From: an uncultured Holophagales bacterium | GTDB taxonomy: Bacteria; Acidobacteriota; Thermoanaerobaculia; Multivoradales; UBA5704 | Reading direction: 5' to 3' | NCBI GenBank assembly: GCA_963842525.1 | Contig: CAWJGT010000023.1 | Location: 64,001-128,000 of the forward strand | DNA: 64,000 nt | Part shown: positions 2,819-26,366 of the stretch, in pieces | How the letters are laid out: every line of letters starts with the position of its first letter | Position numbering within the stretch: position 1 is the stretch's first letter | The notes under the pieces: generated by a model | The model's input: only the letters and a program-made list of their open reading frames with translations | Told to the model about the DNA's origin: nothing | Databases searched by the model: none | Translations under genes and position numbers: made by a program

Positions 2819-2840
2819 TTAGTGCTTCGGCGAACCAGGA

Positions 2841-4505: not shown

Positions 4506-4514
4506 GGAAAGACC

Positions 4515-5074
4515 ATGAGCACCGAGACGATCCCCATTCCCGGCTTCCTGCCCACCCCCCTGGCCACTACGCCCCGCGAGCTCCAGGGGCTCGCGCTGGA
4601 GCTCTATCGGCACCTGGCGGACAACGCCCGCCGGCTGGAGGAATGCGAGCGGAAAGCGAAGGACGAGCTCGCCTCGCAAGCGCGAGAGCATGACCGGATG
4701 ATCGCGCGCCTGGCCGCGGAACGCTTCGAATTCCAGCGGCTTCTGGATCGCGTGCTGCCCCAGATCGAGCAGGGCGAGCTCCTCCGGACCTGGCCACGGC
4801 GCTGACCCTGCAAGCCCGGAGCTGGGACGCAGAGCTTGCGCGGGCGCGGATCGAGGTGATCGATCTCGCCGGGCAGATCCTTACCGATGCGCTCGCCGAA
4901 AAGGTTGAGGTCGAGAGCGCAATCCCGGATCCGGATGTGAATGAGACAGTAGTGCGAAAAACGCTGACGCCGCTCGTCCTGCACGAGGGCCGGGTGGTAG
5001 GCGTGGCCAAAGTGATCACGTCAGTCCCCTTGCCGCGCAGCAAGGAACAAGAGCTGAAGGAGGGCTCGTTGTGA
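4515..5074 (+). CDS. GrpE-like nucleotide exchange factor, interrupted by a frameshift near 4780
   Basis: 4515..4805 encodes a coiled coil. The frame of 4856..5074 is open from about 4784: PDLATALTLQARSWDAELARARIEVIDLAGQ...ETVVRKTLTPLVLHEGRVVGVAKVITS, a GrpE beta-head pattern. The stop overlaps the Hsp70 start (GTGA). Confidence 0.7.
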
Positions 5075-7740: not shown

Positions 7741-7766
7741 GACGCGGGCCGAAGGAGACACATACC

Positions 7767-10268: not shown

Positions 10269-10291
10269 CGTTCCGCAAGGAGGGTTGAGCG

Positions 10292-10651
10292 ATGCCTGCA
10301 TGCCCCTACGGTCCACACCGGCTCGTCCTCGACGAGCGCCTGTGCTGCCGCCATTGCGGCGAGGATCTCCGGCTCTACGCCGCTCTGCGCGATCTGCCGG
10401 TGAGCCTCTACAACGAGGCCCGCCGCCTGTGGGAGGAGGCCGCGCTCGTGGAGGCTGCGGCATGGCTCCACGCCGCCCTGGAGCTGCGGGAAGACTTTCC
10501 GGAGGCGCACTGGCTCCTCGCCGCGGTCGAGGCCCGGCAGGGCCGGCCGGAGAGCGCCAGGAGCCGGCTGGTCCGCGCGCGCGCGCTCGGAGCCGAAATC
10601 GATCCGGACTGGATCCCGCTCCCTCTACCCGAGGAGGTCGAGACCTCATGA
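10292..10651 (+). CDS. Small zinc-ribbon plus TPR protein
   Basis: RBS AAGGAGG. CPYGPH...CCRHCGEDL (putative Zn ligands), then LYNEARRLWEE..AALELREDFPEAHWLLAAVEARQGRPESA (TPR). The stop overlaps the next ATG. Confidence 0.75.
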   Translation: MPACPYGPHRLVLDERLCCRHCGEDLRLYAALRDLPVSLYNEARRLWEEAALVEAAAWLHAALELREDFPEAHWLLAAVEARQGRPESARSRLVRARALGAEIDPDWIPLPLPEEVETS

Positions 10652-12373
10652 GCGTTCTCCTGGAGCCGAAAGCAGCACTGCGCGAATTGATCGTCGGAGC
10701 GGTCGACCGTCTCGACCCGTCCGGCATGGGGAACACCGCGCCAGGAGAAATCCGGCTCCTTCCAGAGCCTGCGGCCAGCACGCTCTCGATCGTGGACAGC
10801 GGCGCCGGCCTGTCCCTGGCGGAGGTGGAGGACCTGCTCGGCAATGCAGGCTCGGATACGGAAGGCTTCTGGGCCGGCCTGCTCGCCTGCCGGCGGCTCT
10901 GCTCCCGCCTGGAGGTCCTGACGCGGGCTTGCGACAGCGGAACCCGCATTCTCTTGACGGAGGACGGCGAGATCCGGATCGGCGCCGCCGAGATCGAGAG
11001 CCCGGGGACCGCAGTGCACCTCCAGCTCTGCCGGGAGCATTCCAGCCTCCTGACCGACGATCTGCTGACGCGACTGATCAAGAAATCCTGCGATTTCGTC
11101 CGCGTCCCCATCTATCTCGGCCGGGGCTGGGATCCGGTCAACCTCATGGACGCGCCCTGGTACCGTGAGATCCCGGACCTTCAGCTCAAGGGAGAGTTGG
11201 ATAGAACCCTTCAGATCCGCACGCTTGCCGCCTTCCCCTTCCAGATCTCCGACAATGCCGGCCCGCGCCTCCGCGGCACCCTCTACATCCGCTCCTGGCG
11301 GCATTCGGCCACTCTGCGCCTCTACTGCCGTCGCGTCTTCGTGGCTGCGGCCGAGGCCGACCTTCTGGGACCGGGGCTTCGTGAGCTGGTATCCGGCGTG
11401 ATCGACGCGGATGCCCCGTCGCGGGCCGAGAGCCGGCAGCTCCTGGAGCCGCGCTCCTCCCAGGGTGCATGGCTTCAATCGGTCCTGCTGCGGATCGTTG
11501 CGCAAGGATTTCTCGGGTTGGCCCGGCAGCGGAGAAAGCAGCTCCAGCAGCTCATGGACGATCACGGTCCGTCCATCAAGGCGGCCTGCCTGGCCTTCCC
11601 TGAAGAGCTGGGTGAGCTGCGCAACCACCTGCCCTACCGCACATCTCTGCGGGACGCCGCCACCCTCCCCGAAATCCTGGAGGGGCGGCCGGAGCGGACG
11701 GTCATCTACGCCGACGACTTCGACATCGCGGCCCCTCTGGTCCCGCTCTACCGCCGGACCAACACCGAGGTCGTTTACATGACGGCGCCGGCCGACGAAA
11801 GGCTCCGGGCGCAGTGGTCGATCGAAAGAGACGGGATCATGTTCCGGCGGGCCGATCTGGAGCCGCCGCTCCCTCCCGCGACCGGTGAGGAAGGTGCGCT
11901 CGCGGGGCGTCTCGAGCACCTGTTCCAAACCTCGATCGATCCCGGGCTCGCCGTCGAGCTCCGCGCACTCAGCCCTGACGCACCGCCCGCGATCCTCTCG
12001 ATATCCGACGAGGGCCGCCGGAAGCTGGAGATGCTCGCGGCGATCCGTTCCCGCCAGCAGCAGGGCCGCACCAACGAGCTGCCGCCGGAGACTCCGGCAT
12101 CTCGCCGAATCGGGAGCACTGGATACGACAACCATCCCCCAGAGGCTCATCCTCAACAGCTCCCATGGGATTGTGGCGCAATGCATCGCTGCCCTCGACG
12201 GGGCCGAGCTTCCTGACGACGGTCCCACGCTCCTTTTCGCCCGCTTCCTGCATGCGCAGGCCCTGCTCTCCGCCGGCTTACACCTCCCCCGCTCGCGAAT
12301 TGCGGAGCTGTCCCGCGCCATGACTGAATTGACGACCAACCTGCTGCCTCAGACCGAAAGGAGTGGAGCATGA
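10648..12373 (+). CDS. Degenerate Hsp90/HtpG-like protein (likely pseudo-ATPase), frameshift near 12091
   Basis: ATG 10648 with GAGGAGG RBS. ALRELIVGAVD (N-box Asn to Gly), LSIVDSGAG, PGTAVHLQL, LIKKSCDFVRVPIY, VNLMDAPW, LRLYCRRVFV. The +1 frame supplies the HtpG C-terminus RLILNSSHGIV and ends overlapping the next ATG. Confidence 0.8.
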
Positions 12374-15072
12374 CGCTCAATACAGCGCAGATGGAATCCA
12401 GGTCGATCAACATCAACCTCAAGACGATTCTCCCGTCGCTGGCCAAGAACCTCTACGGCGACGACTGGCGGATCACCATCCGGGAGCTTTTGCAGAACTG
12501 TCACGATGCCATTGCGGAGCGTGCCTTTTGCAATCCCGGCGAGACCGAGGCGGCAAGAATCGACATCTTCCCCGATCCCACGCCCGGCATCTATACCCTG
12601 ACATTCAGGGACAATGGCATCGGCATGACCCTGCAGGAGGTGGAGGACAATCTGGCCACCGTGGGCGGTGATCACAAGAGCACAAAGATCGAGAAGCTTG
12701 CCCAGGCTGGTACGGCAGACCGCTCCGTGCTCGCGCAGCTCATCGGCCAGTACGGGATCGGCTTTCTCTCCTGCTTCATCATTGCGGATTCTGTCGAGGT
12801 GGTGACCCGGAGCCAGGCCGAAACATCGACCGGTGTGCGGGCCGTGTTCACCGGAGAAACCCGTTGGTTTTACAGTGACGAACCCAACGCAGCTCCCGGC
12901 ACCCAGATCACCTTACACCTGAAACGGAACGAAGCGATCCGCGATCCGGCGACGGGCAGGGAGATCCCTTTGCAGGAGCTTCTCAACTTCGAGCGGCTGA
13001 AGCAGGAGGTGCGGCGTTTCGGCGATCTCCTGCCCTATCCGGTCTACGTCCACCGCAGCCCGATGGACATCGCCGGTGATCTCTGCAACACCATGAAGGC
13101 GCCGTGGGAAAACCAGGCACAAGCGAGGGACGAGCTCCTGCGGTTCCTCCGGGACCGCCATCCCGGCGAGAACGAGCCCATATCGCCGATCGCCTTCAAC
13201 CTCGACCGCAACAAGGACAAAGTCAGTGCACAGGGTGTTTTCTATTTTCCCCGTACAGGGCAGGAAGCGAGCCGCTCGTCCGAATCCGTCGCCCAGGTCG
13301 AGCTTTTCTGCCGGCGGATGTTCATCACCCAGGACATCCCGGCCCTCCTGCCAACGTGGGCCAGCTTCGTCTGCGTCGTGGTCGAGTGCCCAGACATCGT
13401 TCCGACATTGAACCGCAACGACGTGATCCGCCACGGCAACGCCTTTGTAGAGCTCAAACATGCCCTGGGCCGCCACATCATCGAAAGCCTGCAGGTCCTG
13501 GCACAGCGCTACCCGAAAGACTTCGCTGATATCCAAGTGGAGCACCGCGAGCGCCTCTACCGCGGCTTCCTCTCCGACTTCAAGAGCACGCCCTCGAGGG
13601 AGGAGCATTTCTTCCGGACGCTCATCGACTACATACCCTTCACGGTTATCGACCGCACGAAGCCGGCTGGCGAGTCCATGACCCTGCGCAGATACCGCGA
13701 CGAATCAAGGAAGCGTAACACCCTGGCGAAGCCAAACGAGCCCACTCGGGATCAGATTTATTATCTGGATGCCTCCGAGGCAACGGGGCAATACAAGGCG
13801 ATGATCATGCAGCGCGACATCCCGGTGATCCTGGCGAATCATCCGGCGGAGCCCAGCCTCCTGCACGCCTACGGTTCTGCCTTCGGAAGCGAGGTCGAGG
13901 TGGAAGATGCGCGGGCGATCCTCAACCTGTACGTGGAGCCGGTCGAGCAGGCGCCTTACGAGGCCATGAAGCAGTTCCTCGCCAGCCTGGATGGCGGCGG
14001 GCCGGACGAGGTGAGCGCATCTCGTTTCGAGCCGAGCTACGTGCCGGCCATCCTGATCGTCAGCTCGGCGAGCTCCCCGGAGAGGGCCGAGGCGCTCGAA
14101 AGGCTTCTGCGGGAAGGAGCCCCCGTCCTCACGGGCAAGGTCCGCAGGATGATGGAAGACGAGATCATGGGCTCACGGACCGGCCGCGCCACGGTCAGCG
14201 CGGTGCTGAACGACAACAATCCGGTTGTGAAAAAAATACGGGACTATTGTGCGGAAGGAAAGCCCCTGACCGGGATCGTCGCCGATGTTCTCCACGAGAT
14301 CTATCATCTCGCCAGGGCATACAGCGACCGGGCCGCGGCGGAAAGCCCACATTTCTACGAGCACAGAAACATCCTTCTGGCCAGACTGCTGGAGACCGAG
14401 CAACAACTTGTCACGGTGCAGAGCGAGCGGGACCTGCTCGTGCTTGAGAAGCGCAAGTCTTTGGAGCCCCCCACTCGTATGGAGGCCCGAACCTGCGCGA
14501 TGCTCCTCACCGACCTGCGCGGTTCCTCCCGGATGGTGGGTTTCCTCGACAGCCTCCAGAGCGCGGAGATCCTGCAACAGTACGCCGGCGATGTCCAGGC
14601 GATCGTGGAAAAGCTCGGTGGAAAGATCGAGAAGTTCACCGGCGACGGCGTCTTCGCCCATTTCGCGCTGGATGGAGCAACCACTAAGGAGGTCATCGAA
14701 AAAGTGTCGGACTGCGCTCTCGAGATTCAGATGTTCACTAAGAAGTTCTTCTCCCGCGGCGAGGTCGCCGAGACGCTTCTCCATGCGGGCGGGATCCTGG
14801 TGGAAGGCTCCCGGACCCTTCTGCACGTGGCGCGGGTCATGTACGGCACGGTTGCCGGAGCTCCCGCCCTGGTGGGCAAGCAGGTCGTCGCCCTCTTCCG
14901 CGCCTGCGATCAGGACGAGCTCTTCGAGCAGTCCCCCATCGTGCTCTCGGAGCCCTTCCTCTTCAGTCTCAACCCCCTGCCCCAGCCGAAGCCGATCGCC
15001 ATGGACATGAAGCTCGACGCGAGCCTGCCGGGCATGAGCTTCTATCCGCACCCCAACTTCGTCCGGCCGTAG
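12370..15072 (+). CDS. Hsp90/HtpG-family ATPase fused to a C-terminal class III adenylate/guanylate cyclase domain
   Basis: LAKNLY, IRELLQNCHDA, FRDNGIGMT, LIGQYGIGFLSCF, PGTQITLHLK, LFCRRMFI, PTLNRND, AVLNDNNPVV. After a coiled coil: MLLTDLRGSS and IEKFTGDGVFAHF (both cyclase metal-binding Asp). Confidence 0.92.
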   Translation: MTLNTAQMESRSININLKTILPSLAKNLYGDDWRITIRELLQNCHDAIAERAFCNPGETEAARIDIFPDPTPGIYTLTFRDNGIGMTLQEVEDNLATVGGDHKSTKIEKLAQAGTADRSVLAQLIGQYGIGFLSCFIIADSVEVVTRSQAETSTGVRAVFTGETRWFYSDEPNAAPGTQITLHLKRNEAIRDPATGREIPLQELLNFERLKQEVRRFGDLLPYPVYVHRSPMDIAGDLCNTMKAPWENQAQARDELLRFLRDRHPGENEPISPIAFNLDRNKDKVSAQGVFYFPRTGQEASRSSESVAQVELFCRRMFITQDIPALLPTWASFVCVVVECPDIVPTLNRNDVIRHGNAFVELKHALGRHIIESLQVLAQRYPKDFADIQVEHRERLYRGFLSDFKSTPSREEHFFRTLIDYIPFTVIDRTKPAGESMTLRRYRDESRKRNTLAKPNEPTRDQIYYLDASEATGQYKAMIMQRDIPVILANHPAEPSLLHAYGSAFGSEVEVEDARAILNLYVEPVEQAPYEAMKQFLASLDGGGPDEVSASRFEPSYVPAILIVSSASSPERAEALERLLREGAPVLTGKVRRMMEDEIMGSRTGRATVSAVLNDNNPVVKKIRDYCAEGKPLTGIVADVLHEIYHLARAYSDRAAAESPHFYEHRNILLARLLETEQQLVTVQSERDLLVLEKRKSLEPPTRMEARTCAMLLTDLRGSSRMVGFLDSLQSAEILQQYAGDVQAIVEKLGGKIEKFTGDGVFAHFALDGATTKEVIEKVSDCALEIQMFTKKFFSRGEVAETLLHAGGILVEGSRTLLHVARVMYGTVAGAPALVGKQVVALFRACDQDELFEQSPIVLSEPFLFSLNPLPQPKPIAMDMKLDASLPGMSFYPHPNFVRP

Positions 15073-16928: not shown

Positions 16929-16970
16929 GAAACAGAGAGAGTCCGCTCCATTGGGCTCGGAGCAGACCGG

Positions 16971-17028: not shown

Positions 17029-19137
17029 TCACCGGCTGAGCTGTGCCCCCCGCCGTACAGCTCCCCGTGGCTGCGCGAAGGATCGTCCAGTATCCAAAAG
17101 CCGATCGGGGGTCTCCTTCCGGACGACCCGGATCGTCACCTGCCGCACGATCCACTCCTTGTCGGGGAACTCGGAAGGGTAGAGCTTGCGCTTGCGCGGC
17201 GCCTCCCCCGCCATCATCGTGAAGAGCTGGCCGAGCACGCCCTTCGGCACTCCCCGCTTGACCGACAATGGCTGCTCCAGCGCCGGCATCCGCAACCAGT
17301 CGAAGCTCGTCGTGCCCCTGGTGGCGAAGATCTTGAAGATGTCGGTCCCCGCGGTGAAGCCGGGGGGCAGCCAACCGCGGACCGCCAGCGGCAGGGACTC
17401 CTCGGGACCGAGCGTATGGTCCGTCAGGCCGTAGCGCGGCGGCCAGATCGCCTCGATGGACCAGTCGGGCCGCAGGTCGAGCACGGCGATGCTGAGGTCC
17501 CACGGCGAGCCGTTGAAGATCTCGACCCGGACGACTTCGTCGGGAGCAGCTTCGACGACTCCTGGCTCGGGCCGGCCGGGGATCCGTACCTCGAACCGCT
17601 CGAAGAGCGGATGCGGCTGTGGGTTCTCGAGCTCCGCGATCGTCCGGTAGCGGGCGAGGTGGTCCAGGCGCCTCAGCAGCCGTGGCACCGATGCGGCCTG
17701 GGAGATCGGCAGCGGCGGATGCAGCGGGATCGGTGAGCCTCCACGGTCCAGGATCTCGTACTCCCCCTGGTCGGCGACGGCCACCTGGAGATCGGCCTCC
17801 CTGCCGTCCTCCACAAGGCTGATAAAGCCCGGCGCCCTCTCGGCGAGAGACCGGCGAGCCAGGTCGAGGGCACTTTCCTCACCAGGGACCGGCACGCCTT
17901 CCGTGCGCGGCACGACGGCCACCGCACGCTGGAGCGAGAGGGGGCCCGCCGCCGTGAGGACAGCCTGCGCTCCGGGCTCGATCGGGCCCGGCGACAGCTC
18001 GCGGACGACTTCGGCCCAGGACTCCACCGCCCCGGCCTGCCGGACCTCGACGAGCGCCTGCCGGAGGTCGCTCCGGTCAACCTGCGCCCCCGGAGGGAAG
18101 ATGGTGAATTGCTCCCCGACCCGCACGCCCTGCGCCCGGCCGGTGTTGAGCAGGAGCTGCCCCCTCTCGAGGCGGATCACCAGGACAGGCCCGCCGGTCT
18201 CGACGGGGAGATCTCCGGAGGCCCGTACGGCGTCAGTGCGGCTCGTACCGAGGAAGGGCCGGTCGCCATCGCCCAGGAGCACGGGCGTCTGTTGGGGGAG
18301 GAGGCCGTGGATGCGCGCCACGAGGAGGCCGTGAAGCTGGCGGCAGGCGAGGCCCGTGCCCTGGCGGCGGAGGATATCGAGCAGCCAGTAGGTCAAGGCT
18401 CCGTGCTGCTCTCTGTCCGGAAAGGGCATCTCCATGGCGCGCTCGCGCTCCCGGCAGGCGGCGACGAGGACGTAGCCGTCGGCCGGGGGGAGCCAGCCTG
18501 GACCGCCCAACCCTGCCGGGTGGAGCCGGCGCCAGGCCTCCACGAGGTCTTCACGGGTCCCCGCCCCGCTCTCCGCCGGCCGGGCCGTCCGATCGACGCG
18601 CAGTTTTCCGCGCGCCACGGCTCCTGTTCGCCCCCGGGTCGCGCCGCCGCTGTGGCAACTGTCGAGGACGACGGTGACCGAGAGGCCGCGGGCCGTCATC
18701 CGGTGCAGGAGCAGCCCCAGCTCGACGTCGCGAAGATAGCGGGTCTCCGAGAGGCAGATGTCGCATGGCGCCAGGCACTCGTCCCAGCCGCTCTCCCCCT
18801 TGAGCTCAGGGAACAGGGTCGGCGTCCGTGCGCCGTGGCCGGCATAGTGGATGTAGACCTGGTCGCCTGGGAGGGCGGCTTCGGTGACCTGCCGGAAGGC
18901 GGCGACGATGTTCTCGTAGGTGGGCCGCCGCCGTGGATCGCCGGCCGGCATACCGGGGGCCGCCGTCAGCTCGACCATCTGGTTATCGGGCAGCTCAAAG
19001 CGGTCGCGCACGAAGGCTGCCACGGCTTCGACATCCCCGACCGCGCCCGCCAGGTCTGGACAGGAATCCCCGTCCGGGAAGTGGTTTGGCGCATAGTCGC
19101 CAACCCCGATCAGCAAGGCGAACAGGCGGGAGCTCAT
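17029..19137 (-). CDS. Caspase/metacaspase-family (C14) protease with C-terminal accessory domains
   Basis: Start MSSRLFALLIGVGDY at 19137 (ATGA overlap). LAGAVGDV, PTYENIVAAF, YIHYAGHG (His), VVLDSCHSGG (Cys), HGALTYWL, QQTPVLLG. Confidence 0.9.
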   Translation of the reverse strand: MSSRLFALLIGVGDYAPNHFPDGDSCPDLAGAVGDVEAVAAFVRDRFELPDNQMVELTAAPGMPAGDPRRRPTYENIVAAFRQVTEAALPGDQVYIHYAGHGARTPTLFPELKGESGWDECLAPCDICLSETRYLRDVELGLLLHRMTARGLSVTVVLDSCHSGGATRGRTGAVARGKLRVDRTARPAESGAGTREDLVEAWRRLHPAGLGGPGWLPPADGYVLVAACRERERAMEMPFPDREQHGALTYWLLDILRRQGTGLACRQLHGLLVARIHGLLPQQTPVLLGDGDRPFLGTSRTDAVRASGDLPVETGGPVLVIRLERGQLLLNTGRAQGVRVGEQFTIFPPGAQVDRSDLRQALVEVRQAGAVESWAEVVRELSPGPIEPGAQAVLTAAGPLSLQRAVAVVPRTEGVPVPGEESALDLARRSLAERAPGFISLVEDGREADLQVAVADQGEYEILDRGGSPIPLHPPLPISQAASVPRLLRRLDHLARYRTIAELENPQPHPLFERFEVRIPGRPEPGVVEAAPDEVVRVEIFNGSPWDLSIAVLDLRPDWSIEAIWPPRYGLTDHTLGPEESLPLAVRGWLPPGFTAGTDIFKIFATRGTTSFDWLRMPALEQPLSVKRGVPKGVLGQLFTMMAGEAPRKRKLYPSEFPDKEWIVRQVTIRVVRKETPDRLLDTGRSFAQPRGAVRRGAQLSR

Positions 19138-20564
19138 GCCGAAGCCGCGGGTCTGGGCAGCCGCACAGCGGGATCGCCGAGCACGATGTAGTTGCGGGCG
19201 TCGTTGCAGGCGATCCACAAGGTGGCCAGGTACTCCGGATCCTCCGGCCCACGGTTGCGCAGACGCTGCAGCTCCTTGGCCAGCGGGACCGAGAGCCTAG
19301 CGAAGCGTTCGCCGAATACCTCCATGGCCTCTCCCACCGGCCGTCCCTGGAGGATCATGTCCAGTGCGTCCTCGAAGGGTTGGATCTGCTGGCCGGCGCC
19401 GCCCCATTCGATGGAGGACGGCCAAGCCGTCTCGATGTGGCCGATCACGGCGAGAGCCCCGCCCCTCGGATGTGCGAGGAGCCGCTGCGGCAGGCGGGCG
19501 ACGAACGGTTGGGGAGCGACCTCTGCCGCAGCGTCCGACTCGTAGCGGAAGTCGTTCTCCCGCGGGGAACCCGCGCTGTAGCAGGCGAAATGGAAGGAGA
19601 TCATCCCCCGCAGGCGCTCGGTTTCTGGACAGAGGTCGTTGGCGCAGAAGAAAAACTCCCGTGGCGCCGGCCCTTTGAACCGGTTCGGCCCGGGGTGCTC
19701 CCGGCACACAATGGAGCCCTGATACTCCTGCAGGACCGCGCTCTCGCGGCGCAGGACCATGCCGTGGCTGGCGGTGAACAGGAAATCCGGCGTCTCGTCG
19801 CCGCCCAGCAGGCGGCGCAGGCGGACCTTGGTCGCTTCCTGCCGGAACGCCTCGTTCACCTCCCAGCCGGCCTGGTCCCGGGCGCGTTTCGCGAGCGGCT
19901 CCGCCAGGTGGCGGACGCTGAGCTCGGTCGCCGGGTCGCCCTCATGCTCGACAGCAAAAAAGGCGGCCGTGCGGCCCTGCTTCGGCGGCTCCGTCTCCGC
20001 GGCCACGACCTGGCAGGCGTAGCGCTCGTATTCCGCGAGCGTGTCGAAGCAGATCCGTCCAACCGCGTACTCGATGTCAAGCTCGTACTGGAAGTCCCAG
20101 GGGATCTCTTCCGGGCCTCCTACGATCAAGAGGTAGTACGGCATTTTCGCCGGCTCGACCGCGTCCGGACCTACGCCGAACCGGCGCAGGTAAGCGTCCT
20201 TGGTGTCCCCGGCCTTATACCCCTCCTCGGAGACAAGCTCGCGGTAGTAGTGGGGGCGCTTGATGCCGACCTGGCTCTTGCGCAGGTCCAGAAGAGGTCG
20301 GAGAGCCTTCAGGAGGTCGAACGTCCGTTCGTCATTCTGGGCAAAGATAATTCCCCAGCCTGCCTGCGAGAGATCGCCGGCATCGGCTTTCCGGTCACGC
20401 AGCCGCCTCTCCCGGCCCTTGACCCAGAGCTGGAGATCCTCGACATCCTCCCGCTCGGGCTGCCGGCGGACCCATGCCGCGAACTCTTCGACCGTGGCTG
20501 GAGAGTAGGCGTACTCTCCGGTCTCGAACTGGATCCCATTGGGGACGAGCAGTCTCTGCTCCAT
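19134..20564 (-). CDS. Peptidase C25 (gingipain)-like clan CD protease
   Basis: PYYLLIVGGPEEIPWDFQY..YAVGRI, LFTASHGM (His), FHFACYSAG (Cys), GGALAVIGH, NYIVLGDPAVRL. GAGGAGG RBS. Confidence 0.75.
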   Translation of the reverse strand: MEQRLLVPNGIQFETGEYAYSPATVEEFAAWVRRQPEREDVEDLQLWVKGRERRLRDRKADAGDLSQAGWGIIFAQNDERTFDLLKALRPLLDLRKSQVGIKRPHYYRELVSEEGYKAGDTKDAYLRRFGVGPDAVEPAKMPYYLLIVGGPEEIPWDFQYELDIEYAVGRICFDTLAEYERYACQVVAAETEPPKQGRTAAFFAVEHEGDPATELSVRHLAEPLAKRARDQAGWEVNEAFRQEATKVRLRRLLGGDETPDFLFTASHGMVLRRESAVLQEYQGSIVCREHPGPNRFKGPAPREFFFCANDLCPETERLRGMISFHFACYSAGSPRENDFRYESDAAAEVAPQPFVARLPQRLLAHPRGGALAVIGHIETAWPSSIEWGGAGQQIQPFEDALDMILQGRPVGEAMEVFGERFARLSVPLAKELQRLRNRGPEDPEYLATLWIACNDARNYIVLGDPAVRLPRPAASA

Positions 20565-20588
20565 CGCGTCCTCCTCGGTCGTGGCGAT

Positions 20589-20621
20589 GGAGGCGGCGGG
20601 GCTGAGGAACCCGCCGCCTCC
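20589..20621. promoter_or_regulatory. Perfect 12-bp stem-loop between the peptide gene and the C25 gene (no U tract on the coding strand)
   Basis: GGAGGCGGCGGG-gctgaggaa-CCCGCCGCCTCC. Confidence 0.6.
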
Positions 20622-20648
20622 CTATCCTTTCGCGGTCCGAGCCCGGGG

Positions 20649-20867
20649 TCAGTAGGTGCTGGGATCGTCGGAGGCCTTGCCGTAGCCCGGCTTGATAGGC
20701 TGGTCCGGGATCGGATCGTCGCCCGGCTCGCCGTAGCCGGGTTTAGGCGGCACGTCCGGGATCGGATCGTCGCCCGGCTCGCCGAATCCGGGCTTGGGCG
20801 GTCGGTCCACAATCACATCGCCCGTCTTCAATGCCTGCGGATCCACCGGCTGCTTCATGTCGCTCAT
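20649..20867 (-). CDS. 72-aa peptide: 21-aa leader-like segment plus three 17-aa Pro/Gly/Asp-rich repeats
   Basis: AAAGGAGA RBS. MSDMKQPVDPQALKTGDVIVD-RPPKPGFGEPGDDPIPD-VPPKPGYGEPGDDPIPD-QPIKPGYGKASDDPSTY. The DNA period is 51 bp with synonymous differences between copies. Confidence 0.8.
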   Translation of the reverse strand: MSDMKQPVDPQALKTGDVIVDRPPKPGFGEPGDDPIPDVPPKPGYGEPGDDPIPDQPIKPGYGKASDDPSTY

Positions 20868-20911
20868 CAGGGTGTCTCCTTTCTGATTAGCTCGGCCGTT
20901 CTCTTTCCCAA

Positions 20912-20938
20912 TAGACACGGGGGGGCATGGTTTTGTTT
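20912..20938 (-). promoter_or_regulatory. Possible ECF-type promoter (AAAC-N18-GTCTA) upstream of the peptide gene
   Basis: The minus strand reads CCAAACAAAACCATGCCCCCCCGTGTCTAT. It resembles the generic ECF AAC/GTCT elements, but the spacing is uncertain. Confidence 0.25.
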
Positions 20939-20941
20939 GGC

Positions 20942-23900
20942 TCACTTCCAATCACCCTGAAGGACGAAGCCAGCCCAGTAGTAGGGAGCCTCCCAACCCG
21001 GATGGCTCCGCACGGCCATCTGGGCTTTCCGCAAGGCCGCTGCCGGGGAGAGCCCTTCGCGGAGCATGGCGCTGTAAAAGTGCGTCATCAGCTCTGCGGT
21101 GGCTCGATCGCTCACACTCCAGAGGCTGACCACGACCCCCTTGGCGCCAGCATAGAGGAATCCGCGCGTCAGACGAGACACACCCTCGCCCCTGACATCC
21201 TCACCCAAGGCTGTCTCGCAGGCGCTCAAAACGACGAGCTCCACGGGGAGATCCAGACCGTAGATTTCCAGGGCATGGAGAAAGCCTTCCCGCCGGTTAC
21301 CCTGCTCATCGAACTGGGAAAGGACGATGCCCGACAGCTCGGGATGCGGATCGAGCTTGCCGTGGGTAGCGAAGTGGACGATGCGATACTGTCCAAGCAG
21401 CGGGCTCTTCGCGGTCTCGAGATTGGCATCGAAGCCGAGCGCGCGGAAGGACTCCCCGGCGGGGACGAAGGAGAGAATTGCTTCCGCCTCGGCCCTTGAC
21501 CAATACAGGGGCGGCAGATCCTGGAAGTCCTCTTCGATCGCCGCACGGGATGACGTGCCGAGGGCGGCGGCGAGCCGCGAATCCGCGGGGCCGAACACGG
21601 GGTCGGCCAGCACCGCCACAGCGTGAGGCGCCGGCCGGCGCAGGGCCCTGTCCCGGCGAAGAAGGGCCAGAGCGGAGGCGGAAGGGAGATGGACGATCTC
21701 GTGGCCGGCCACCAGGGGGCGCGCCGGCACGCCCGCTTCCCCGCCAAGCTCGGGCAGCGCCGCGAACGGAACCAGGTGGAGCGCTCCGTCCGCGACGATC
21801 AACAGTCGCTTCGCTTCAAGACGACCGGAGACCGGCGCGAGCAGCAGGTCCGAGAGCCTGCGCGCGGCTGCCGCGAACTCTCCCTGGGCAGCACGTCGAC
21901 GGTTCCTGACCAGAAATTGGCCGAGATCGAGGACCGCCGCCTCGATCGTGCGACGTTCCGGGAGATCAAAGACCTCCAGAGAATCGCGGCCGACGAGGAA
22001 CAAAAAGCTCCGTGGCTCCGCCAGCACATAAGAGAGCAGGAGGGAGTCGCCGTCCAGCACCTCGCGCCGGACCTCCTGAAGAGTCAGGGGGCTGGATTGG
22101 ACCAGGGCAGCGTATCTTGGACTGGCGGCGCGGATCTCGGCCTGCAGGTGGTCATGCTGGACCACGAGGTCCGAAAGCTCCCGCTCCAGGGCAGCCAGCC
22201 GCCGCAAAGATTCCTCGTCCTGAGGCCTCGAGGGCCAGATCTGAAGCGCGCGCTCGCGCTTCTTGATCTCCCGCAAGAGGCGTGTCTCGGCCTCGATGAG
22301 ATTGGGATCGACCCCGGTGCGGAGGTCGGCTTGCGATTCGGCCAGCTCGTCGAGCAGCGACCGGGCCCGTGCCCGCTCGCTCACCTCGAATGCCTGGACA
22401 TCCAATCCCTTGCCGGGCTCGCGCCGGTGCGACCGGATGAGCAGGTCGATATAGAAAAGATATCGCTCGCGTACCTGAGCGGCGAACGAGGACCGCAGAT
22501 CCTGGCTGGTCGTACCAGTCCGCAGGGACTCGGTCAAGTCGAGCCCCTCTGAGGCGAGGTTGCGGGCAGTAGGGAGATCGCCGAGGTCACGCCAAGCCCG
22601 CGCAGCACCGTCGAGGATCCGGGCCTCAGAGTCGGCATCGCCCGCCGCCTGTGCCAGCTTCCGGGCCTCGTCGAACAGGCGGACGGCCTCGGTTTCACGA
22701 TTTTCGAGATCGCAGATCCGGGCCAGATTGCCGAGCGCGTAAGCTTTTCCACGGATGTCGTCGATCCGGCGCGCAACCTTGAGTGCCTTCTCCAAATACG
22801 CCTTGGCCTGATCGATCTGCCCGGCTTCGAGAAGGAGATGCCCCATCCAGGAAAGAGTGGACGTCTCGTTCTGGGCCTCACCGAGCCGCTGCGTCAACTC
22901 CAGGGCTCTAGACAGATTGTCGAGGGCCTCGGGGACCTTCCCCAGCTCCAGGTACGCCGCGCCGATGCTGCTCAAGGTGACAGCTTCCCTGGCGAGCTCC
23001 CGCTCCACGCCGTGCTGCAGCAAGAGCGCCTCCTGGAAGGAGCGGAGAGCCTCGGACGGCCTCCCCATGGCCAGGTCCACTTGACCGATGTTGGAAAGGA
23101 TGATGGCCTGGTTCCCGCGCCCTCCGAGCTTCCTCCAGAGGGCGAGCGACCGATGGTAGAAGGCAAGGGCGTCCTGGACTCTCCCTCGCCTCTTGTAGAC
23201 CAGGGCGATGTTGCTCAAGGTGTCGGCCTCACCAGGGCCGTCGCCGAGTTGTTGATAGAGGGAAAGAGACCGGAGATAGGCCCCGAGAGCCTGTTCGAGG
23301 TCACCGAGGTGGTAGCGCGACCGGCCGATGGCGTCAACAAGCAGCGCCTCGCCGGCCCGATCTCCTGCGGCGAGGAACAAAGGCAATGCCTGTTCGAAGA
23401 GGTTGCGCGCTTTCTGATGCTCTCCGAGGTTCTCATAGCTGCTGCCGAGCCAGAGGAGCGTGAGCGCCCGCTCCCGGGGCTCGGTGGCCGCATCCCAGAG
23501 ATCGAAGGCGCGTTCAAGCTCTCTGATCGTATGACGGTGCGCCTTGGCCGAGGGTTCCCGGCGCGAGGCAAGGCCTCGCGAAAGGTGGATTGCCGCGAGA
23601 GCCCGGCGGCGGTCTGTCAATGTGGCGCGACGGGAGGTCTCGAGCGAGAGGGCATAGATGCCTGCCCGGCTCGAGCCGAGCTCCAGCCGGTAGCCTCCGT
23701 TGACCTCAGCAACCGCAAGGAGGGGCTCCGGAGGCAGCAGGCCACTACCAGGCGCTTCCAGATCGAGCAGACACTCTCCCGTGGGACTGAAGAGGGTGAC
23801 CCGGAGATCGATGCCACGGCTGGCAATCTTTCCCCGGAGAGCCTCCCCGGCCTTCAACGGGATCTCATATGCCTGGAGGTCTTGCCCGCCGCGCAGCTTC

Positions 23901-24055
23901 CCCTGGACGGCATCGCCGGGCCAGAGCCGGCGCGCGGGAACCTTCGGCGTTCCCGGGGATGATGAGCGAACTGGAAGGCCGGAGCTGAGGGCAAGAGCCT
24001 CAAGGCCAAGGAGGCTGACGACAACCCAAGCTGTCGATGATGTCCGCGGTCTCAC
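20942..24055 (-). CDS. TPR-CHAT protease with signal-like N-terminus and PPC-like domain
   Basis: Hydrophobic N-terminus, beta-sandwich segment (YEIPLKAGE..IDLRVTLFSPTG), about 8 TPR units, AFEVSERARARSLLD, ADGALHLVPFAAL, IVHFATHG (His), VVLSACETALG (Cys), PYYWAGFVLQGDW. Confidence 0.93.
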   Translation of the reverse strand: MRPRTSSTAWVVVSLLGLEALALSSGLPVRSSSPGTPKVPARRLWPGDAVQGKLRGGQDLQAYEIPLKAGEALRGKIASRGIDLRVTLFSPTGECLLDLEAPGSGLLPPEPLLAVAEVNGGYRLELGSSRAGIYALSLETSRRATLTDRRRALAAIHLSRGLASRREPSAKAHRHTIRELERAFDLWDAATEPRERALTLLWLGSSYENLGEHQKARNLFEQALPLFLAAGDRAGEALLVDAIGRSRYHLGDLEQALGAYLRSLSLYQQLGDGPGEADTLSNIALVYKRRGRVQDALAFYHRSLALWRKLGGRGNQAIILSNIGQVDLAMGRPSEALRSFQEALLLQHGVERELAREAVTLSSIGAAYLELGKVPEALDNLSRALELTQRLGEAQNETSTLSWMGHLLLEAGQIDQAKAYLEKALKVARRIDDIRGKAYALGNLARICDLENRETEAVRLFDEARKLAQAAGDADSEARILDGAARAWRDLGDLPTARNLASEGLDLTESLRTGTTSQDLRSSFAAQVRERYLFYIDLLIRSHRREPGKGLDVQAFEVSERARARSLLDELAESQADLRTGVDPNLIEAETRLLREIKKRERALQIWPSRPQDEESLRRLAALERELSDLVVQHDHLQAEIRAASPRYAALVQSSPLTLQEVRREVLDGDSLLLSYVLAEPRSFLFLVGRDSLEVFDLPERRTIEAAVLDLGQFLVRNRRRAAQGEFAAAARRLSDLLLAPVSGRLEAKRLLIVADGALHLVPFAALPELGGEAGVPARPLVAGHEIVHLPSASALALLRRDRALRRPAPHAVAVLADPVFGPADSRLAAALGTSSRAAIEEDFQDLPPLYWSRAEAEAILSFVPAGESFRALGFDANLETAKSPLLGQYRIVHFATHGKLDPHPELSGIVLSQFDEQGNRREGFLHALEIYGLDLPVELVVLSACETALGEDVRGEGVSRLTRGFLYAGAKGVVVSLWSVSDRATAELMTHFYSAMLREGLSPAAALRKAQMAVRSHPGWEAPYYWAGFVLQGDWK

Positions 24056-24066
24056 ATCGATTCGAT

Positions 24067-24849
24067 TCAGGTGGGAGGGGCGACTTCGAAATCATAGGTG
24101 TCGACAAGCGATCGCTGCGGTCCGCTGCCGCCGTAGAGCTCCAGTTGGTAGCTGCCAGGGGAAAAGTGCTGCCGCGACAGCTCCATGGAAAGAATGCCTT
24201 CCTCATTGCGTGTCAGCCCAGGCTTGACGAGGACTGGCTTGCCGCCATCGCCGGTCCGCCGGAACACCGCCTCGTACTCGGAGAATGCCGGCGCATTCCA
24301 GGCATGGACCATGAGAACGAAGCTCAAGCCGCCGGGCGGCACTACGTTCTCAGCATCTTGCGGACCCGCGCTGCGCCTGACTTCGTCAGGAGCGTACAGG
24401 TCGGCATAGGCGACGTTCACCTGCGGCTGGTTGATCTCCTCGATTGTCCGCCGCAACGCAACCACCCAGACCGACAGCCCCACCGTACAGACGAGCAGCG
24501 CCGCCGCCAGCCCGTAGGCGAATTGCGGCGCGGCGAACCACCGCCGGCTCGTCAAGATCTTCCGCTCCTCCAACCGCGGCCGCAACCGCCGCCAGGCTGC
24601 CTCGACCTGGGCGTCGGACAGGCCGGCCTCCTCCGGCTTGCCGTTCTCGAACTCCTTCAGGTCCAGCAGCAACTGCGAGCAGTCGGGGCAGAGCGCCAGG
24701 TGGTCCTGGATCCGCTCGTCATCCGGCGGGGTCAGCTCGCCGGCGCGATAGGCGACCAGCTCTTCGGGAGTGGGGTGATCGTCCAGGCCGCGCCGGGCCT
24801 TGTCGGCCAGCGCTCGCAGGGTGGGCCCGAGGGGCGGCTTTGCGTCCAC
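24067..24849 (-). CDS. Zinc-finger (zf-HC2/ZAS) transmembrane anti-sigma factor
   Basis: HPTPEELVAYRAGEL..IQDHLALCPDC (HxxxCxxC), TM segment YGLAAALLVCTVGLSVWVVAL, extracytoplasmic beta domain. Directly downstream of an ECF sigma. Confidence 0.88.
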   Translation of the reverse strand: MDAKPPLGPTLRALADKARRGLDDHPTPEELVAYRAGELTPPDDERIQDHLALCPDCSQLLLDLKEFENGKPEEAGLSDAQVEAAWRRLRPRLEERKILTSRRWFAAPQFAYGLAAALLVCTVGLSVWVVALRRTIEEINQPQVNVAYADLYAPDEVRRSAGPQDAENVVPPGGLSFVLMVHAWNAPAFSEYEAVFRRTGDGGKPVLVKPGLTRNEEGILSMELSRQHFSPGSYQLELYGGSGPQRSLVDTYDFEVAPPT

Positions 24850-24862
24850 TCTCTTCTCGCCG

Positions 24863-25525
24863 TCAGAATCCGGGATCGTCGAAATAATCGCCCAGCTTGG
24901 CCTTCAAGGCCTGCCGGGCCTGGAACAGATGCGCCTTCACGGTGTCGATCGAGACCTTCATCAGCTCCGCGATCTCTCGGTATTTGAGGTCCTGGTCCAG
25001 ACGCAGGAGGACGCAGCGGCGCATCTGGGTCGGCAGGTCGTCCAGGGCGCCGTAGAGCAGCCTCGCTCTCTCCTCCGCCAGCACGCCTTCGAGCGGCCCA
25101 CGTCCTCCGGCCTCCAGCAACGTCGTACGGTCCCCTTCCTCCGGTGAGCCTCCCAGGGCCTCGTCCAGCAACACCATCTCGGCATCACGCTTCTGGGTCG
25201 ACTGGCTGCGCAGGGTGTTGCGGTAGACGTTCGCGGCGATCTGCCATAGCCAGGTCTCGAAACGCGCCGCACCCCTGAAATTCGCCAGGCTCCTGTACAC
25301 CCGCAGGAAGGTCTCCTGGACGAGGTCCTGGCACTCCTCGGTCGAGAACCCCCTTTTGGCGAAGAACGAGAAGACCAGGCGCGAGTACCGGCAGAAGATC
25401 AGGTGGAAGCTCTCCTCCATCTCCACGCCCGCCTGCCACCTCTCGATCCATTCGTTGACGGGCCTCCCCCTCTCCGAGCCGGAGGGTGGACGGTCCGAGC
25501 CAAACGAGGTTGGGTGTAAAGCCAT
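24863..25525 (-). CDS. ECF-family RNA polymerase sigma factor
   Basis: Region 2: CQDLVQETFLRVY..FRGAARFETWLWQIAANVYRN. Region 4: ALDDLPTQMRRCVLLR..YREIAELMKVSIDTVKAHLFQARQAL. The true start may be a little downstream. Confidence 0.93.
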   Translation of the reverse strand: MALHPTSFGSDRPPSGSERGRPVNEWIERWQAGVEMEESFHLIFCRYSRLVFSFFAKRGFSTEECQDLVQETFLRVYRSLANFRGAARFETWLWQIAANVYRNTLRSQSTQKRDAEMVLLDEALGGSPEEGDRTTLLEAGGRGPLEGVLAEERARLLYGALDDLPTQMRRCVLLRLDQDLKYREIAELMKVSIDTVKAHLFQARQALKAKLGDYFDDPGF

Positions 25526-25600
25526 GCGCCTTCCCCAAGGGTCCCGCGATCACGGAGATCAAGACCTTGTTGAACCCCTATCGTAGCCCACATCAGGGGT

Positions 25601-25635
25601 AAACAGAAACGGCCGGCGAGGACGCCGGCCGTTTC
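25601..25635 (-). terminator. Rho-independent terminator after yceI
   Basis: 13-bp stem GAAACGGCCGGCG-agga-CGCCGGCCGTTTC, followed by TGTTT on the minus strand. Confidence 0.7.
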
Positions 25636-25655
25636 CTGGGCGCAGAAAGCGGGCT

Positions 25656-26260
25656 CTACTTGGCGGGAGCCGCGGCTTGGAGGTTCGAACTCGATCGAGA
25701 TGTTGACCTTGACGTCGTCGCCCAGCACGGGACCGGCATCGAGCACGCGGTTCCAGACCACCCCGTAGTCCTTGCGGTTGACCGTAAAGCTCGTCTCGAA
25801 GCCGGCCTTCACGCCGTTCGGGGTCTTGAACGTCCCCAGGACATCCACTGGAATGGTGACCTGCTTGGTCACCCCGTGCATGGTCAGGTCGCCCGTGACG
25901 TCCAGGGTGTCGGCGTCCTTGGCCTTCACCTCGGTGCTGGTGAAGGTGAGGCTCGGGAACTTCTGGACGTCGAAAAAGTCGGCGCCGCGCAGGTGGTTGT
26001 CGCGGTCGGCGTTGCCGGTGTCGATGGACGCCGCGGGGACGGTGAACTCGACGCTGGACGCCGCCGGGTTCTGCTTGTCGTACTTGATCGTCCCGTTCGA
26101 ACTCCTTGAAGCGGCCGGGAACGTTCGAGACGAAGTGCCGGATGCTGAAGCTGACGGCGCTGTGGTCGGGGTCGACCTTGTAGACCACGGCTTCGGCCGA
26201 AGCCAGGGCGGGCGCCAGCAGCGCCAGCGCGAGAGCCAGGGTGAGTGACTTGCGATTCAC
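25656..26260 (-). CDS. yceI: YceI-family periplasmic lipid/polyisoprenoid-binding protein, two apparent frameshifts (about 26097 and 25687)
   Basis: GTG 26260 with AGGAGG RBS. Signal peptide, YKVDPDHSAVSFSIRHF..VPGRF; the shifted frame gives SIDTGNADRDNHLRGADFFDV, VTGDLTMHGVTK, VNRKDYGV; a second shift gives ..SNLQAAAPAK-stop. Confidence 0.85.
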
Positions 26261-26366
26261 GATCTCTGTCCTCCTTCGAGAGGTCTGCAACAGGGCAGCA
26301 GCTCGGGCGCCCTACTCTACACCAACTCGGCGCCCCCGCGCTGTAAGGGATTCGTAAAAGCGAACG

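Follow-up and report, generated by a model that had tools for sequence, protein, structure and literature searches.

The described system that comes closest to the locus treated here is the DdvS/DdvA pair of Myxococcus xanthus. According to the accessible part of PMC11506125, DdvA is a zinc-associated anti-sigma (ZAS) protein fused to a periplasmic tetratricopeptide repeat (TPR)-CHAT portion, and it regulates an island consisting of a cyclic-oligonucleotide-based antiphage signalling system (CBASS) and a type III-B CRISPR (clustered regularly interspaced short palindromic repeats) system. DdvA deprived of TPR-CHAT becomes a substrate of RseP, and the authors propose that a self-cleavage by CHAT, induced by an as yet unknown signal, constitutes the site-1 step. 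Fused DdvA-like proteins are reported in that part of the source only from Myxococcota and one Comamonas. The DdvS-dependent promoters (GTAA-n16-CGT) were mapped via 5'-rapid amplification of cDNA ends (5'-RACE) and mutation (available part of PMC6061681). For the proteases, too, precedents exist: SAVED-CHAT activates PCaspase in a documented cascade with a small inhibitor, PCi (available part of bioRxiv 10.1101/2023.06.23.546230), and caspase-like proteases activate adjacent effectors in defence systems (available part of PMC12642450). Here we describe a six-gene locus from an uncultured Holophagales bacterium of soil (Acidobacteriota; assembly GCA_963842525.1), found in a window of 64,000 nucleotides (nt), by which we mean the whole stretch of contig CAWJGT010000023.1 that was analysed. 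In this locus, a sigma factor of the extracytoplasmic function (ECF) type, an anti-sigma factor and an exported TPR-CHAT protein are encoded separately and are followed by a small repeat peptide and two clan CD proteases. We found no description of such a split cassette in the literature searched, which was covered in part; a description under an ECF group may exist.

The six genes lie on the minus strand (17029-25525 in the list of open reading frames, ORFs) in the order sigma factor, anti-sigma factor, TPR-CHAT, repeat peptide, C25-like protease and C14 protease (Table 1). The initial annotation, made from the letters of the sequence, had described six co-oriented genes with these identities, and ORF coordinates, Pfam/NCBIfam and Foldseek agree with it. 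Spacings of 13 nt between sigma and anti-sigma gene and of 11 nt between anti-sigma and TPR-CHAT gene suggest that the first three are co-transcribed. The arrangement is no chance neighbourhood, because other genomes repeat its order. We interpret it, with moderate confidence, as a split analogue of DdvS/DdvA which drives a pair of clan CD protease effectors, probably for defence or regulated death. The initial annotation had pictured a relay in which the exported CHAT protein cuts the anti-sigma factor and the sigma factor then induces the peptide and the two proteases. This model is reasonable and partly supported; it is better put in terms of a DdvS/DdvA-like cassette in split form, which includes a conserved peptide and has exchangeable cargo of immune type.

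Table 1. Features of the 64,000-nt window (numbering starts at its first letter; aa, amino acids)
Feature	Position	Strand	Remarks
Possible promoter of the sigma gene	25548..25571	-	AACAAGG-N-CGTGATC; sole match in the window; its end is 23 nt away from the sigma ATG
ECF (group 4) sigma factor, 220 aa	24863..25525	-	Assigned by Pfam and NCBIfam
Single-pass anti-sigma factor, 260 aa	24067..24849	-	zf-HC2, 28.5 bits (cut-off 22.2)
TPR-CHAT protein, 1037 aa	20942..24055	-	Pfam CHAT, 235 bits; many TPR matches
ECF-type promoter motif AACAAAACCATGCCCCCCCGTGTCT	20913..20937	-	AACAAA-N13-CGTGTCT; starts 5 nt past the CHAT stop, ends 45 nt before the peptide ATG
Repeat peptide gene, 72 aa	20649..20867	-	ATG at 20867, stop at 20649; preceded by AGGAGA
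G+C-rich hairpin, 12 pairs, without T tract	20589..20621	-	Fold of 20565-20655; between peptide and C25-like genes
C25-like gingipain-fold clan CD peptidase, 476 aa	19134..20564	-	H267/C328
C14 metacaspase-like peptidase	17029..19137	-	aa 1-295 with H101/C161, plus a C-terminal region of about 400 aa with beta-rich domains
Terminator-like hairpin with T-rich tail	16940..16968	-	Terminator scan; 60 nt past the C14 stop; a plus-strand terminator, belonging to the M28 peptidase gene that converges on the locus, lies opposite
Second cluster: TPR protein	109-2313	+	Followed by a 163-aa ORF
Second cluster: CHAT protein, 554 aa	2841-4505	+	
Second cluster: two Hsp70-like proteins of about 900 aa	4945-7740 and ~7563-10268	+	Followed by a small TPR ORF
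Second cluster: 900-aa protein	12370-15072	+	Hsp90/HATPase-like N-terminus; C-terminal stretch matches PADLOC Pycsar-cyclase models (E 9e-11)

The sigma factor is of the ECF type: Pfam recognised Sigma70_r2 (53.6 bits) and r4_2 (50 bits), with no match for region 3, and the score against the NCBIfam model sigma70-ECF (TIGR02937) is 90.4 bits at a cut-off of 42.9. Its nearest solved relatives are RpoE/AlgU-type factors (E 1e-22), and its own genome contains at least 28 tblastn matches to it, an upper count for paralogues. The anti-sigma factor, encoded beside the sigma factor, is a ZAS protein with the N-terminal zinc motif H50-x3-C54-x2-C57. It possesses one hydrophobic span (about aa 110-132), beyond which some 125 residues follow; they include an extracytoplasmic domain of roughly 110 aa. 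In an alignment of 10 members of this anti-sigma family (A2), the zinc motif, the transmembrane segment, a juxtamembrane P-x-V-N linker and the outer domain are conserved. H50, C54 and C57 are kept in nine of the 10 members, and the copy of a paralogous cassette named T5 below lacks these two Cys residues. At E<=0.01, the family profile matched ChrR and a mycobacterial anti-sigma factor but not DdvA.

In the TPR-CHAT protein, the CHAT domain occupies aa 730-1035 and spans positions 3-289 of the profile of the CHAT peptidases (PF12770, clan CD). The N-terminus, MRPRTSSTAWVVVSLLGLEALALSS, reads as signal-like; it is followed by a beta-rich N-domain (about aa 43-170), which looks PPC-like by eye, a label without confirmation in the domain libraries. 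Among 16 CHAT N-termini from related cassettes, likewise judged by eye, about 12 contain a hydrophobic segment, and a lipobox-like Cys stands just behind it in T4, L082, L084, L141, L144 and L146 (T and L numbers denote paralogous cassettes and further loci, respectively); in L142 the Cys lies further in. These N-termini support export of the cassette CHAT proteins; the C-terminal domain of the anti-sigma factor is placed outside by the topology of that protein. A complex prediction for CHAT residues 176-1037 (N-domain left out) and anti-sigma residues 134-260 gave a score of 0.00, which weighs neither way.

A second line of evidence is the promoter motif which follows the CHAT gene (Table 1). 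The pattern AACA-N13-14-SGTGTCT has a single match in the window, where 0.03 are expected, and 19 matches in the genome versus four for the reversed control. A looser form was scored within 168 nt past the CHAT stop in 18 cassettes, the expectation being derived from a frequency, in these same loci, of 0.25 per kb: it occurs in 11 of the 18 (0.73 expected, a near-match in L059 left uncounted), at a distance of 3-50 nt and with any cargo. More specifically, CAACAAA, 12-13 bases and CGTGTC stand right after the CHAT stop in L012, L020, L074, L139, L146, L147 and the paralogous cassettes, and in T5 the motif is present twice, once ahead of the peptide gene and once ahead of cas6. At 20913..20937, both elements (AAC and CGT) and the distance between them fit the AAc/cGT pattern of the DdvS promoters (PMC6061681, in the part available). 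On the strength of this ECF-type motif, its recurrence and its fit to the DdvS promoters, the peptide, C25-like and C14 genes most likely form one transcription unit with an ECF-type promoter. The claim that the sigma factor drives the downstream genes is strengthened by the recurrent ECF motif behind the CHAT stop, a motif that cannot be tied to this particular sigma factor. Upstream of the sigma gene itself, the site at 25548..25571 resembles the motif downstream of CHAT, and a similar sequence precedes the sigma gene of L059; we regard it as a weak candidate for a sigma-gene promoter. The usual autoregulation of ECF factors is not evident, because the regions upstream of the sigma genes contain no consistent copy of the motif.

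The regulatory genes recur as a cassette. Whole-genome tblastn revealed five sites at which relatives of the anti-sigma factor are flanked by a sigma factor and a TPR-CHAT protein with the same N-domain. T1 is the locus described above, in which CHAT is followed by the motif, the repeat peptide, C25-like and C14. T2, 58 kb off on the same contig, continues after CHAT with the motif, a 55-aa Pro-rich peptide, a small lipoprotein and a C25-like paralogue (46% identity); it may be decaying, because its sigma factor is reduced to a 76-aa region-4 ORF remnant and its CHAT gene is present in two overlapping ORFs. In T3 (L107), a motif variant, a 44-aa peptide, a C14-like gene in three ORF pieces and a 962-aa HetF-like caspase with pentapeptide repeats follow. 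T4 (L108) continues with a 121-aa ORF and then, judged by eye, thioredoxin-reductase-like housekeeping genes, with no evident cargo. In T5 (L106, G000:C14:144500-164000), CHAT is followed by the motif, a peptide of 72 aa containing two GG-x-K-x-G-R units, a hairpin, a second copy of the motif and a type III CRISPR-Cas locus comprising cas6, cas10-like and csx10-like genes, three csx7-type RAMPs, a SAVED protein, a reverse transcriptase beside cas1, and cas2. The relay had been called CRISPR-independent. This is correct at the locus itself and does not extend to T5, a paralogous cassette placed directly upstream of a type III CRISPR-Cas locus.

Beyond this genome, 401 genomes of the phylum were sampled with the anti-sigma profile A2, and 107 of them gave a match at E<=1e-8 (a tally that includes the unpublished genome G152, which enters into no other result). 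About 20 of the matches were whole-length, and most comprised the zinc-finger part only. Among the 20 regions fetched around whole-length matches, sigma factor, anti-sigma factor and TPR-CHAT occur in the same order in eight (L139-L142, L144, L146-L148). A ninth, L149, contains the anti-sigma factor with TPR-CHAT downstream and had no tblastn match for the sigma factor; of the others, three have sigma and anti-sigma factor without a detected CHAT, five have CHAT upstream, and three are arranged in other ways. What follows the cassette is variable: a 917-aa ORF combining C25-like and CHAT domains and then a CHAT-FGE-sulfatase protein in L139; a CHAT protein and a C25-like gene on the opposite strand in L140; a Ser/Thr kinase in L141; a repeat-bearing subtilase and then a VWA protein in L142; a CHAT protein, an unknown protein and a DO-GTPase2 protein in L144; a CHAT protein in L146; a C25-like protein in L147; and genes on the other strand in L148. 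The complete order sigma/anti-sigma/CHAT/peptide/C25/C14 was found on three more contigs of Acidobacteriota type, in L059, L074 and L012 (the last cut at the anti-sigma gene). The initial annotation had made its model depend on such linkage elsewhere of the C25/C14 pair to sigma/anti-sigma/TPR-CHAT triads, which these three loci provide. In all three, C14 shares the C-terminal region of the window's C14, and a further CHAT domain follows the C14 gene.

Anti-sigma factor and TPR-CHAT are separate ORFs in 17 of 17 aligned cassettes. A metagenome scan with the CHAT alignment A4 yielded 80 loci, most of them in the order CHAT, sigma, anti-sigma and one, L161, in the order of the window. An anti-sigma-like ORF occurs in the flanks of 23 of the 80, mostly 0.6-0.9 kb downstream of the CHAT gene. 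In L160, L168, L204 and about 20 more soil-type loci, CHAT comes first, followed by an ECF sigma factor and an anti-sigma-like ORF of about 330-360 aa; the sigma factor in the gap between CHAT and anti-sigma was seen in those loci that were inspected.

From these data, the following course of events can be proposed. The cytoplasmic zinc-finger domain of the anti-sigma factor would, as expected from its family, hold the ECF sigma factor, and the exported, separately encoded TPR-CHAT protein would work with the outer domain of the anti-sigma factor. An outside signal, probably a protein or a peptide, would be bound by the TPR array, whereupon CHAT would clip the anti-sigma factor near the juxtamembrane P-x-V-N stretch (site-1 step). 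Release of the sigma factor would then be completed by a site-2 protease and by cytoplasmic proteases; M50 site-2 proteases are encoded in the genome. The freed sigma factor would transcribe peptide, C25-like and C14 genes from the AAC...CGT promoter, and the two proteases would act jointly in immunity or abortive infection, as an effector pair of which one member activates or licenses the other. That CHAT would cleave the anti-sigma factor is suggested by four observations: their linkage in two gene orders, the DdvA fusion, the invariant His/Cys pair and the conserved P-x-V-N motif.

The same three genes could alternatively be read as an ordinary envelope-stress regulator, in which other site-1 proteases release the sigma factor and TPR-CHAT is an output, an accessory or a non-catalytic co-sensor, for example an extracytoplasmic protease that remodels the envelope or scavenges proteins. 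The spacing of 11-13 nt, which makes the three genes look co-transcribed as regulon members often are, would suit this reading, as would the closeness of the sigma factor to the RpoE/AlgU type. RpoE/AlgU-type sigma factors are released by DegS/AlgW-type proteases. In addition, the ECF54 sigma factors have CHAT proteins in their context while anti-sigma factors are lacking and no link to one is proposed (PMC8999054, in the part available). However, the linkage of TPR-CHAT with sigma and anti-sigma factor is kept in two orders (CHAT first in at least 23 of the 80 metagenomic loci) and exists also as the DdvA fusion (PMC11506125, accessible part), H898/C946 of CHAT is invariant in the 17 cassettes, and the anti-sigma family has a conserved outer domain and a juxtamembrane motif of its own. 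We therefore consider an envelope-stress function of this kind rather doubtful and retain the interpretation of CHAT as the protease of a split DdvS/DdvA-like system.

The cargo of the window consists of two proteases. The C25-like protein exceeds the cut-off of the Pfam family C25 marginally (25.6 bits, cut-off 23), with profile positions 287-374, i.e. the C-terminal part, covered; NCBIfam and PADLOC gave no match. Its AlphaFold2 model (pLDDT 88, pTM 0.91) is a single catalytic unit, and the best Foldseek matches are the gingipains Kgp (top match, E 4e-9) and RgpB, the entries 4rbm, 6i9a, 1cvr and 4ief being matched at E 4e-9 to 1e-7 and a TM-score of 0.43-0.53; separase and the CHAT domains of DdvA and Craspase are the next hits. 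The C14 protein scores 49.6 bits in Pfam (cut-off 21.4) and has the caspase fold: Foldseek found metacaspase 9 (E 9e-15) and metacaspase 4 (E about 1e-14), and the full-length search gave caspase-domain matches only. Residues 163-173 and 298-316 form loops of low confidence, which are candidate cleavage sites. It matches the PADLOC model 'caspase' at E 3.6e-33 and, weakly, the NCBIfam model 'caspase, EACC1-associated type' (28 bits, cut-off 140). Its C-terminal region is rare (12 proteins found) and belongs to no Pfam or NCBIfam family; the protein atlas label DUF4384 (0.93) is a lead only. The His/Cys pairs which the initial annotation had noted in all three proteases are conserved: H898/C946 of CHAT is invariant in 17 of 17 cassette proteins, H267-G268 and C328 of C25-like in 24 of 24 family sequences, and H101/C161 of C14 is kept in at least 90% of 12 rows, together with the motifs HYxGHG and DSCHSG. 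We take these pairs to be the catalytic residues, given the His-Gly/Ala-Cys pattern of clan CD and their positions at strand ends in the C25-like and C14 models. The translational coupling noted earlier is an ATGA common to the C25-like stop and the C14 start. Neither protease shows a signal peptide, as had also been noted: the N-terminus of C25-like (MEQRLLVPNGIQFETGEY) and that of C14, read from the sequences, contain no hydrophobic segment, and secretion of the C25-like protein is not indicated. From the ATGA coupling, the replacement of C14 by a 693-aa CHAT protein with the same kind of ATGA overlap in L082, and the joining of C25-like and CHAT domains in the 917-aa ORF of L139, we infer that the two proteases may cooperate.

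The C25-like protein belongs to a large family, with at least 3671 relatives at E<=1e-5 (45-55% identity across phyla) in Cyanobacteria, Chloroflexota, Acidobacteriota, Planctomycetota and others. The closest named relatives are from Acidobacteriota, Thermoanaerobaculia or Holophagales, as is the case for the cassette-linked contigs. In the literature searched, covered in part, no description of the family was found; the words 'gingipain', 'C25' and 'CHAT' are absent from the main text of PMC7159879, and 'gingipain' and 'C25' from that of PMC12642450. Among 80 genome loci anchored on the C25-like protein, a cassette CHAT gene stands directly upstream on the same strand in L012, L020, L032, L059, L074 and L082; in L084 the cassette is downstream and in L073 on the other strand. 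A CHAT or C14 domain lies no more than 5 kb from the C25-like gene in at least 22 of the 80, which is a lower bound, because the profiles are narrow and several loci are short; in L007, L017 and L035 a CHAT domain follows about 0.9 kb downstream. Neighbours outside the cassette are nSTAND1-WD40, CHAT-SIR2, CHAT-HEAT and astacin-like-motif proteins and a metallophosphoesterase-like protein; Nostocales loci have a 445-aa GHSFG-motif protein upstream and a 1600-aa nSTAND1-WD40 protein downstream. A third C25-like copy in the genome (L005/L006, G000:C6:18000-48000) is a 1038-aa lipoprotein-like TIR fusion in an island with WD40 proteins, two CHAT-SIR2 proteins, nSTAND1 and patatin/TPR-S. The neighbours and architectures of the family are those of prokaryotic conflict systems.

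This distribution raises the question whether peptide, C25-like and C14 constitute an independent protease-effector module of defence, which adjoins the cassette simply in the way that defence genes gather in islands and has a promoter that answers another of the many ECF sigma factors of the genome. Such a module would agree with the predominance of C25-like genes free of the triad (72 of 80 loci), beside nSTAND1-WD40, CHAT-SIR2, hydrolase-like or metalloprotease-like genes, with the presence of another CHAT/Hsp70-like cluster upstream in the window and with the 19 motif sites in the genome. It is nevertheless unlikely in view of the motif, which lies 3-50 nt past the CHAT stop in 11 of the 18 cassettes whatever follows, and of the six-gene order repeated on three other contigs. 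Moreover, the second C25-like copy of the genome (T2) also follows a cassette, and it is the cassette, not C25, that the peptide gene accompanies.

The repeat peptide is composed of three units of about 17 aa, P-x-K-P-G-F/Y-G-E-P-G-D-D-P-I-P-D, with one Lys per unit and no hydrophobic segment. Its gene contains a 51-nt (17-aa) tandem unit in 2.3 copies of 82-91% identity; three of the four base differences between the first two repeat units are synonymous. Pfam, NCBIfam and PADLOC gave no match, and tblastn found none outside the own genome, so that related peptides were located by position only. In most cassettes a small Gly/Pro/Lys-rich ORF lies downstream of the CHAT gene: repeat peptides sharing G-(G/P)-K-(P/T/V/I)-G-x-(Y/F) fill the CHAT-to-C25 gap of L012, L020, L059 and L074; behind CHAT, a short hydrophilic ORF equipped with a ribosome-binding site is present in L139, L140, L141 (zinc-ribbon type), L144, L146 and L147; and in L161 a small Pro/Lys-rich ORF overlaps the CHAT stop. 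Because it is present after the triad whatever the cargo, CRISPR-Cas included, we assign the peptide to the regulator and not to the protease cargo. The earlier suggestion that it is cargo induced by the sigma factor accordingly stands insofar as the promoter motif precedes the peptide gene, and has to be altered in that the peptide goes with the regulatory cassette. Candidate roles are those of a TPR-CHAT ligand or pseudo-substrate, a feedback element, or an inhibitor of the cargo proteases. The hairpin behind the peptide gene is not significant for its composition (z -1.2 versus shuffles) and was not called by the terminator scan; similar hairpins follow the peptide genes of T5 and L161. Two further observations concern this position. 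In L142, the CHAT gene is followed by a 935-aa subtilase ORF (5605-8412, plus strand, putative start), whose N-terminus consists of five PEDFPLEPDD repeats and which looks as if a repeat peptide had been fused to a protease. Between the short peptide and the C25-like gene, L004 (9379-9747, minus strand) and L082 (about 9650-10000) both encode a conserved lipoprotein (about 120 aa, motif ERWxWWNYTFLDG, no Pfam match).

The repeats could also indicate a maturation pathway, the peptide being a multi-core precursor which the two clan CD proteases cut (or ligate, legumain-like) into signals or bioactive peptides of about 17 aa. Gingipains and metacaspases cleave after Lys/Arg. This specificity would suit three near-identical 17-aa units with one Lys each, the repeat peptides with a G-x-K-x-G-aromatic/Arg core in L012, L020, L059, L074 and T5, and the repeat region at the N-terminus of the L142 subtilase ORF. 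On the other hand, the peptide gene is present without protease cargo (in T5 a CRISPR-Cas locus follows), transporter, signal peptide and modifying enzyme are absent from the locus, and many cassette peptides are not repetitive; such a pathway is thus very unlikely. We deem slightly less probable still that, within a split DdvS/DdvA-like system, the induced peptide is a fourth, conserved component of the switch and a 'danger signal' among kin cells with positive feedback, for which CHAT would be a receptor-protease of the caspase family. As the peptide has no export signal, it would leave the cell only on lysis, brought about by a phage or by the protease cargo of the cell itself; in sister cells, the exported CHAT protein would bind it with its TPR array, and the bound CHAT would cleave the anti-sigma factor of these cells and pre-arm their protease or type III CRISPR-Cas cargo.

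Several points weigh against our interpretation as a split DdvS/DdvA analogue with a protease cargo. The link to DdvA is architectural and not one of close homology, because no DdvA sequence match was obtained and the sigma factor is nearest to RpoE/AlgU; a phmmer search of the PDB (E<=1e-5) with the CHAT protein matched TPR proteins only and no DdvA. The motif is not assignable to this sigma factor, because there are 19 genome sites and at least 28 sigma matches. The search for a promoter common to the sigma genes yielded one ahead of those of the window and L059 only. C25 and C14 lie downstream of the cassette in a minority of cases only: none of the 80 metagenomic CHAT relatives had a C25-like gene or a C14 of this type in its flanks, and most differ in gene order. 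Moreover, T2 looks decayed and T4 is without evident cargo. The hairpin between peptide and C25-like genes could limit read-through. Finally, the protein-protein steps, the trigger and the cellular outcome are proposals.

With respect to the surroundings, the window is part of contig C23 of a genome of 9.95 Mb in 34 contigs, and its G+C content ranges from 0.58 to 0.76. Positions 20001-26000 have a G+C content of about 0.65, compared with 0.70-0.76 to their right, so that the locus is, in its cassette portion, somewhat poorer in G+C than much of the window. The locus has YceI, dehydrogenases and an M28 peptidase as neighbours. Immediately upstream of the sigma gene, the YceI-like gene (25399-26290, minus strand) is read in two frames, with the N-part in ORF 25559-26290 and the C-part in ORF 25399-25929, which is either a frameshift or an assembly error; in L074, the sigma gene likewise comes after a YceI-like C-terminus. 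The plus strand carries a second CHAT-containing cluster (109-15072, Table 1), which looks like a chaperone-linked conflict system. Genome-wide, 63 CHAT-domain matches were counted, and the caspase-family repertoire is unusually large. At 38729-64000 (minus strand), very long ORFs with a high G+C content at third codon positions (2981 aa, 1444 aa and more than 3031 aa, the last running off the window) may encode multi-modular enzymes.

The main interest of the locus is that it makes the idea of CHAT as a site-1 protease directly testable: in the split form, protease and substrate are separate, and the question therefore becomes a simple one of trans-cleavage. The recurrence of the cassette in Acidobacteriota with swappable cargo, from clan CD proteases and a type III CRISPR-Cas locus to a kinase and a subtilase, suggests a general way of arming costly or suicidal immune effectors at the level of transcription from outside the cytoplasm. 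In addition, a large family of cytoplasmic gingipain-fold proteases linked to STAND and CHAT conflict systems is defined, and a conserved small peptide gene in the regulatory cassette is brought to attention.

The comparison with known systems can begin with the cargo. The gingipains Kgp and RgpB of Porphyromonas (MEROPS C25) come closest in structure to the 476-aa protein (E 4e-9 to 1e-8, TM-score about 0.5) and share His-Gly and Ala-Cys motifs at strand ends. Unlike them, the C25-like protein, at about 12% identity, is cytoplasmic and has no signal peptide, pro-domain, Ig-like domain or C-terminal domain for type IX secretion. With the protease effectors of STAND/Avs conflict systems (Kaur et al. 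2020; PMC12642450), the C25-like family shares its position beside nSTAND1-WD40, CHAT-SIR2, alpha/beta-hydrolase-like and metallophosphoesterase-like genes in other phyla, whereas a STAND NTPase is absent from this locus. The SAVED-CHAT/PCaspase system of Haliangium ochraceum (type III-B) likewise has two clan CD proteases in one locus and is a precedent for a bacterial caspase cascade: there, the first protease activates the second, and PCi and a sigma-like protein are involved. Here, in contrast, the first intracellular protease has the gingipain fold and is not a CHAT protein, and control would be transcriptional via the ECF sigma factor. Identity with that system was rejected, as none of the six proteins matched SAVED, which occurs only in the T5 locus, and there is no cyclic-oligonucleotide sensor. 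In the type III-E Craspase, where Csx29 associates with Cas7-11 and cuts Csx30, so that an RpoE-like sigma factor is set free, a TPR-CHAT protein is similarly tied to the control of an ECF-like sigma factor via proteolysis of an inhibitor. Craspase, however, is cytoplasmic and RNA-guided, while the present locus has an exported CHAT protein and, as inhibitor, a membrane anti-sigma factor of the classical ZAS type. Pfam and NCBIfam assigned none of the six proteins to a cas family and found no Cas7-11, Csx30 or Csx31 among them, and a Craspase-like identity was rejected; the parallel to Csx29/Csx30 drawn at the outset is an analogy only.

DdvS/DdvA (PDB 8ROT) is the system with which the comparison is most extensive. 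In the window, a 260-aa anti-sigma factor and a 1037-aa TPR-CHAT protein, rather than a single polypeptide, make up the sensor. The anti-sigma factor has a small outer domain of its own, CHAT carries a signal- or lipoprotein-like N-terminus and a beta-rich N-domain, a small peptide gene follows, and the cargo consists of two clan CD proteases. Common to both are the ECF sigma factor, the zinc-finger anti-sigma factor, the outer TPR-CHAT with its His-Cys pair, promoters of the AAc/cGT type, and a probable output of defence type, the paralogous cassette T5 of the genome studied here being placed at a type III CRISPR-Cas locus.

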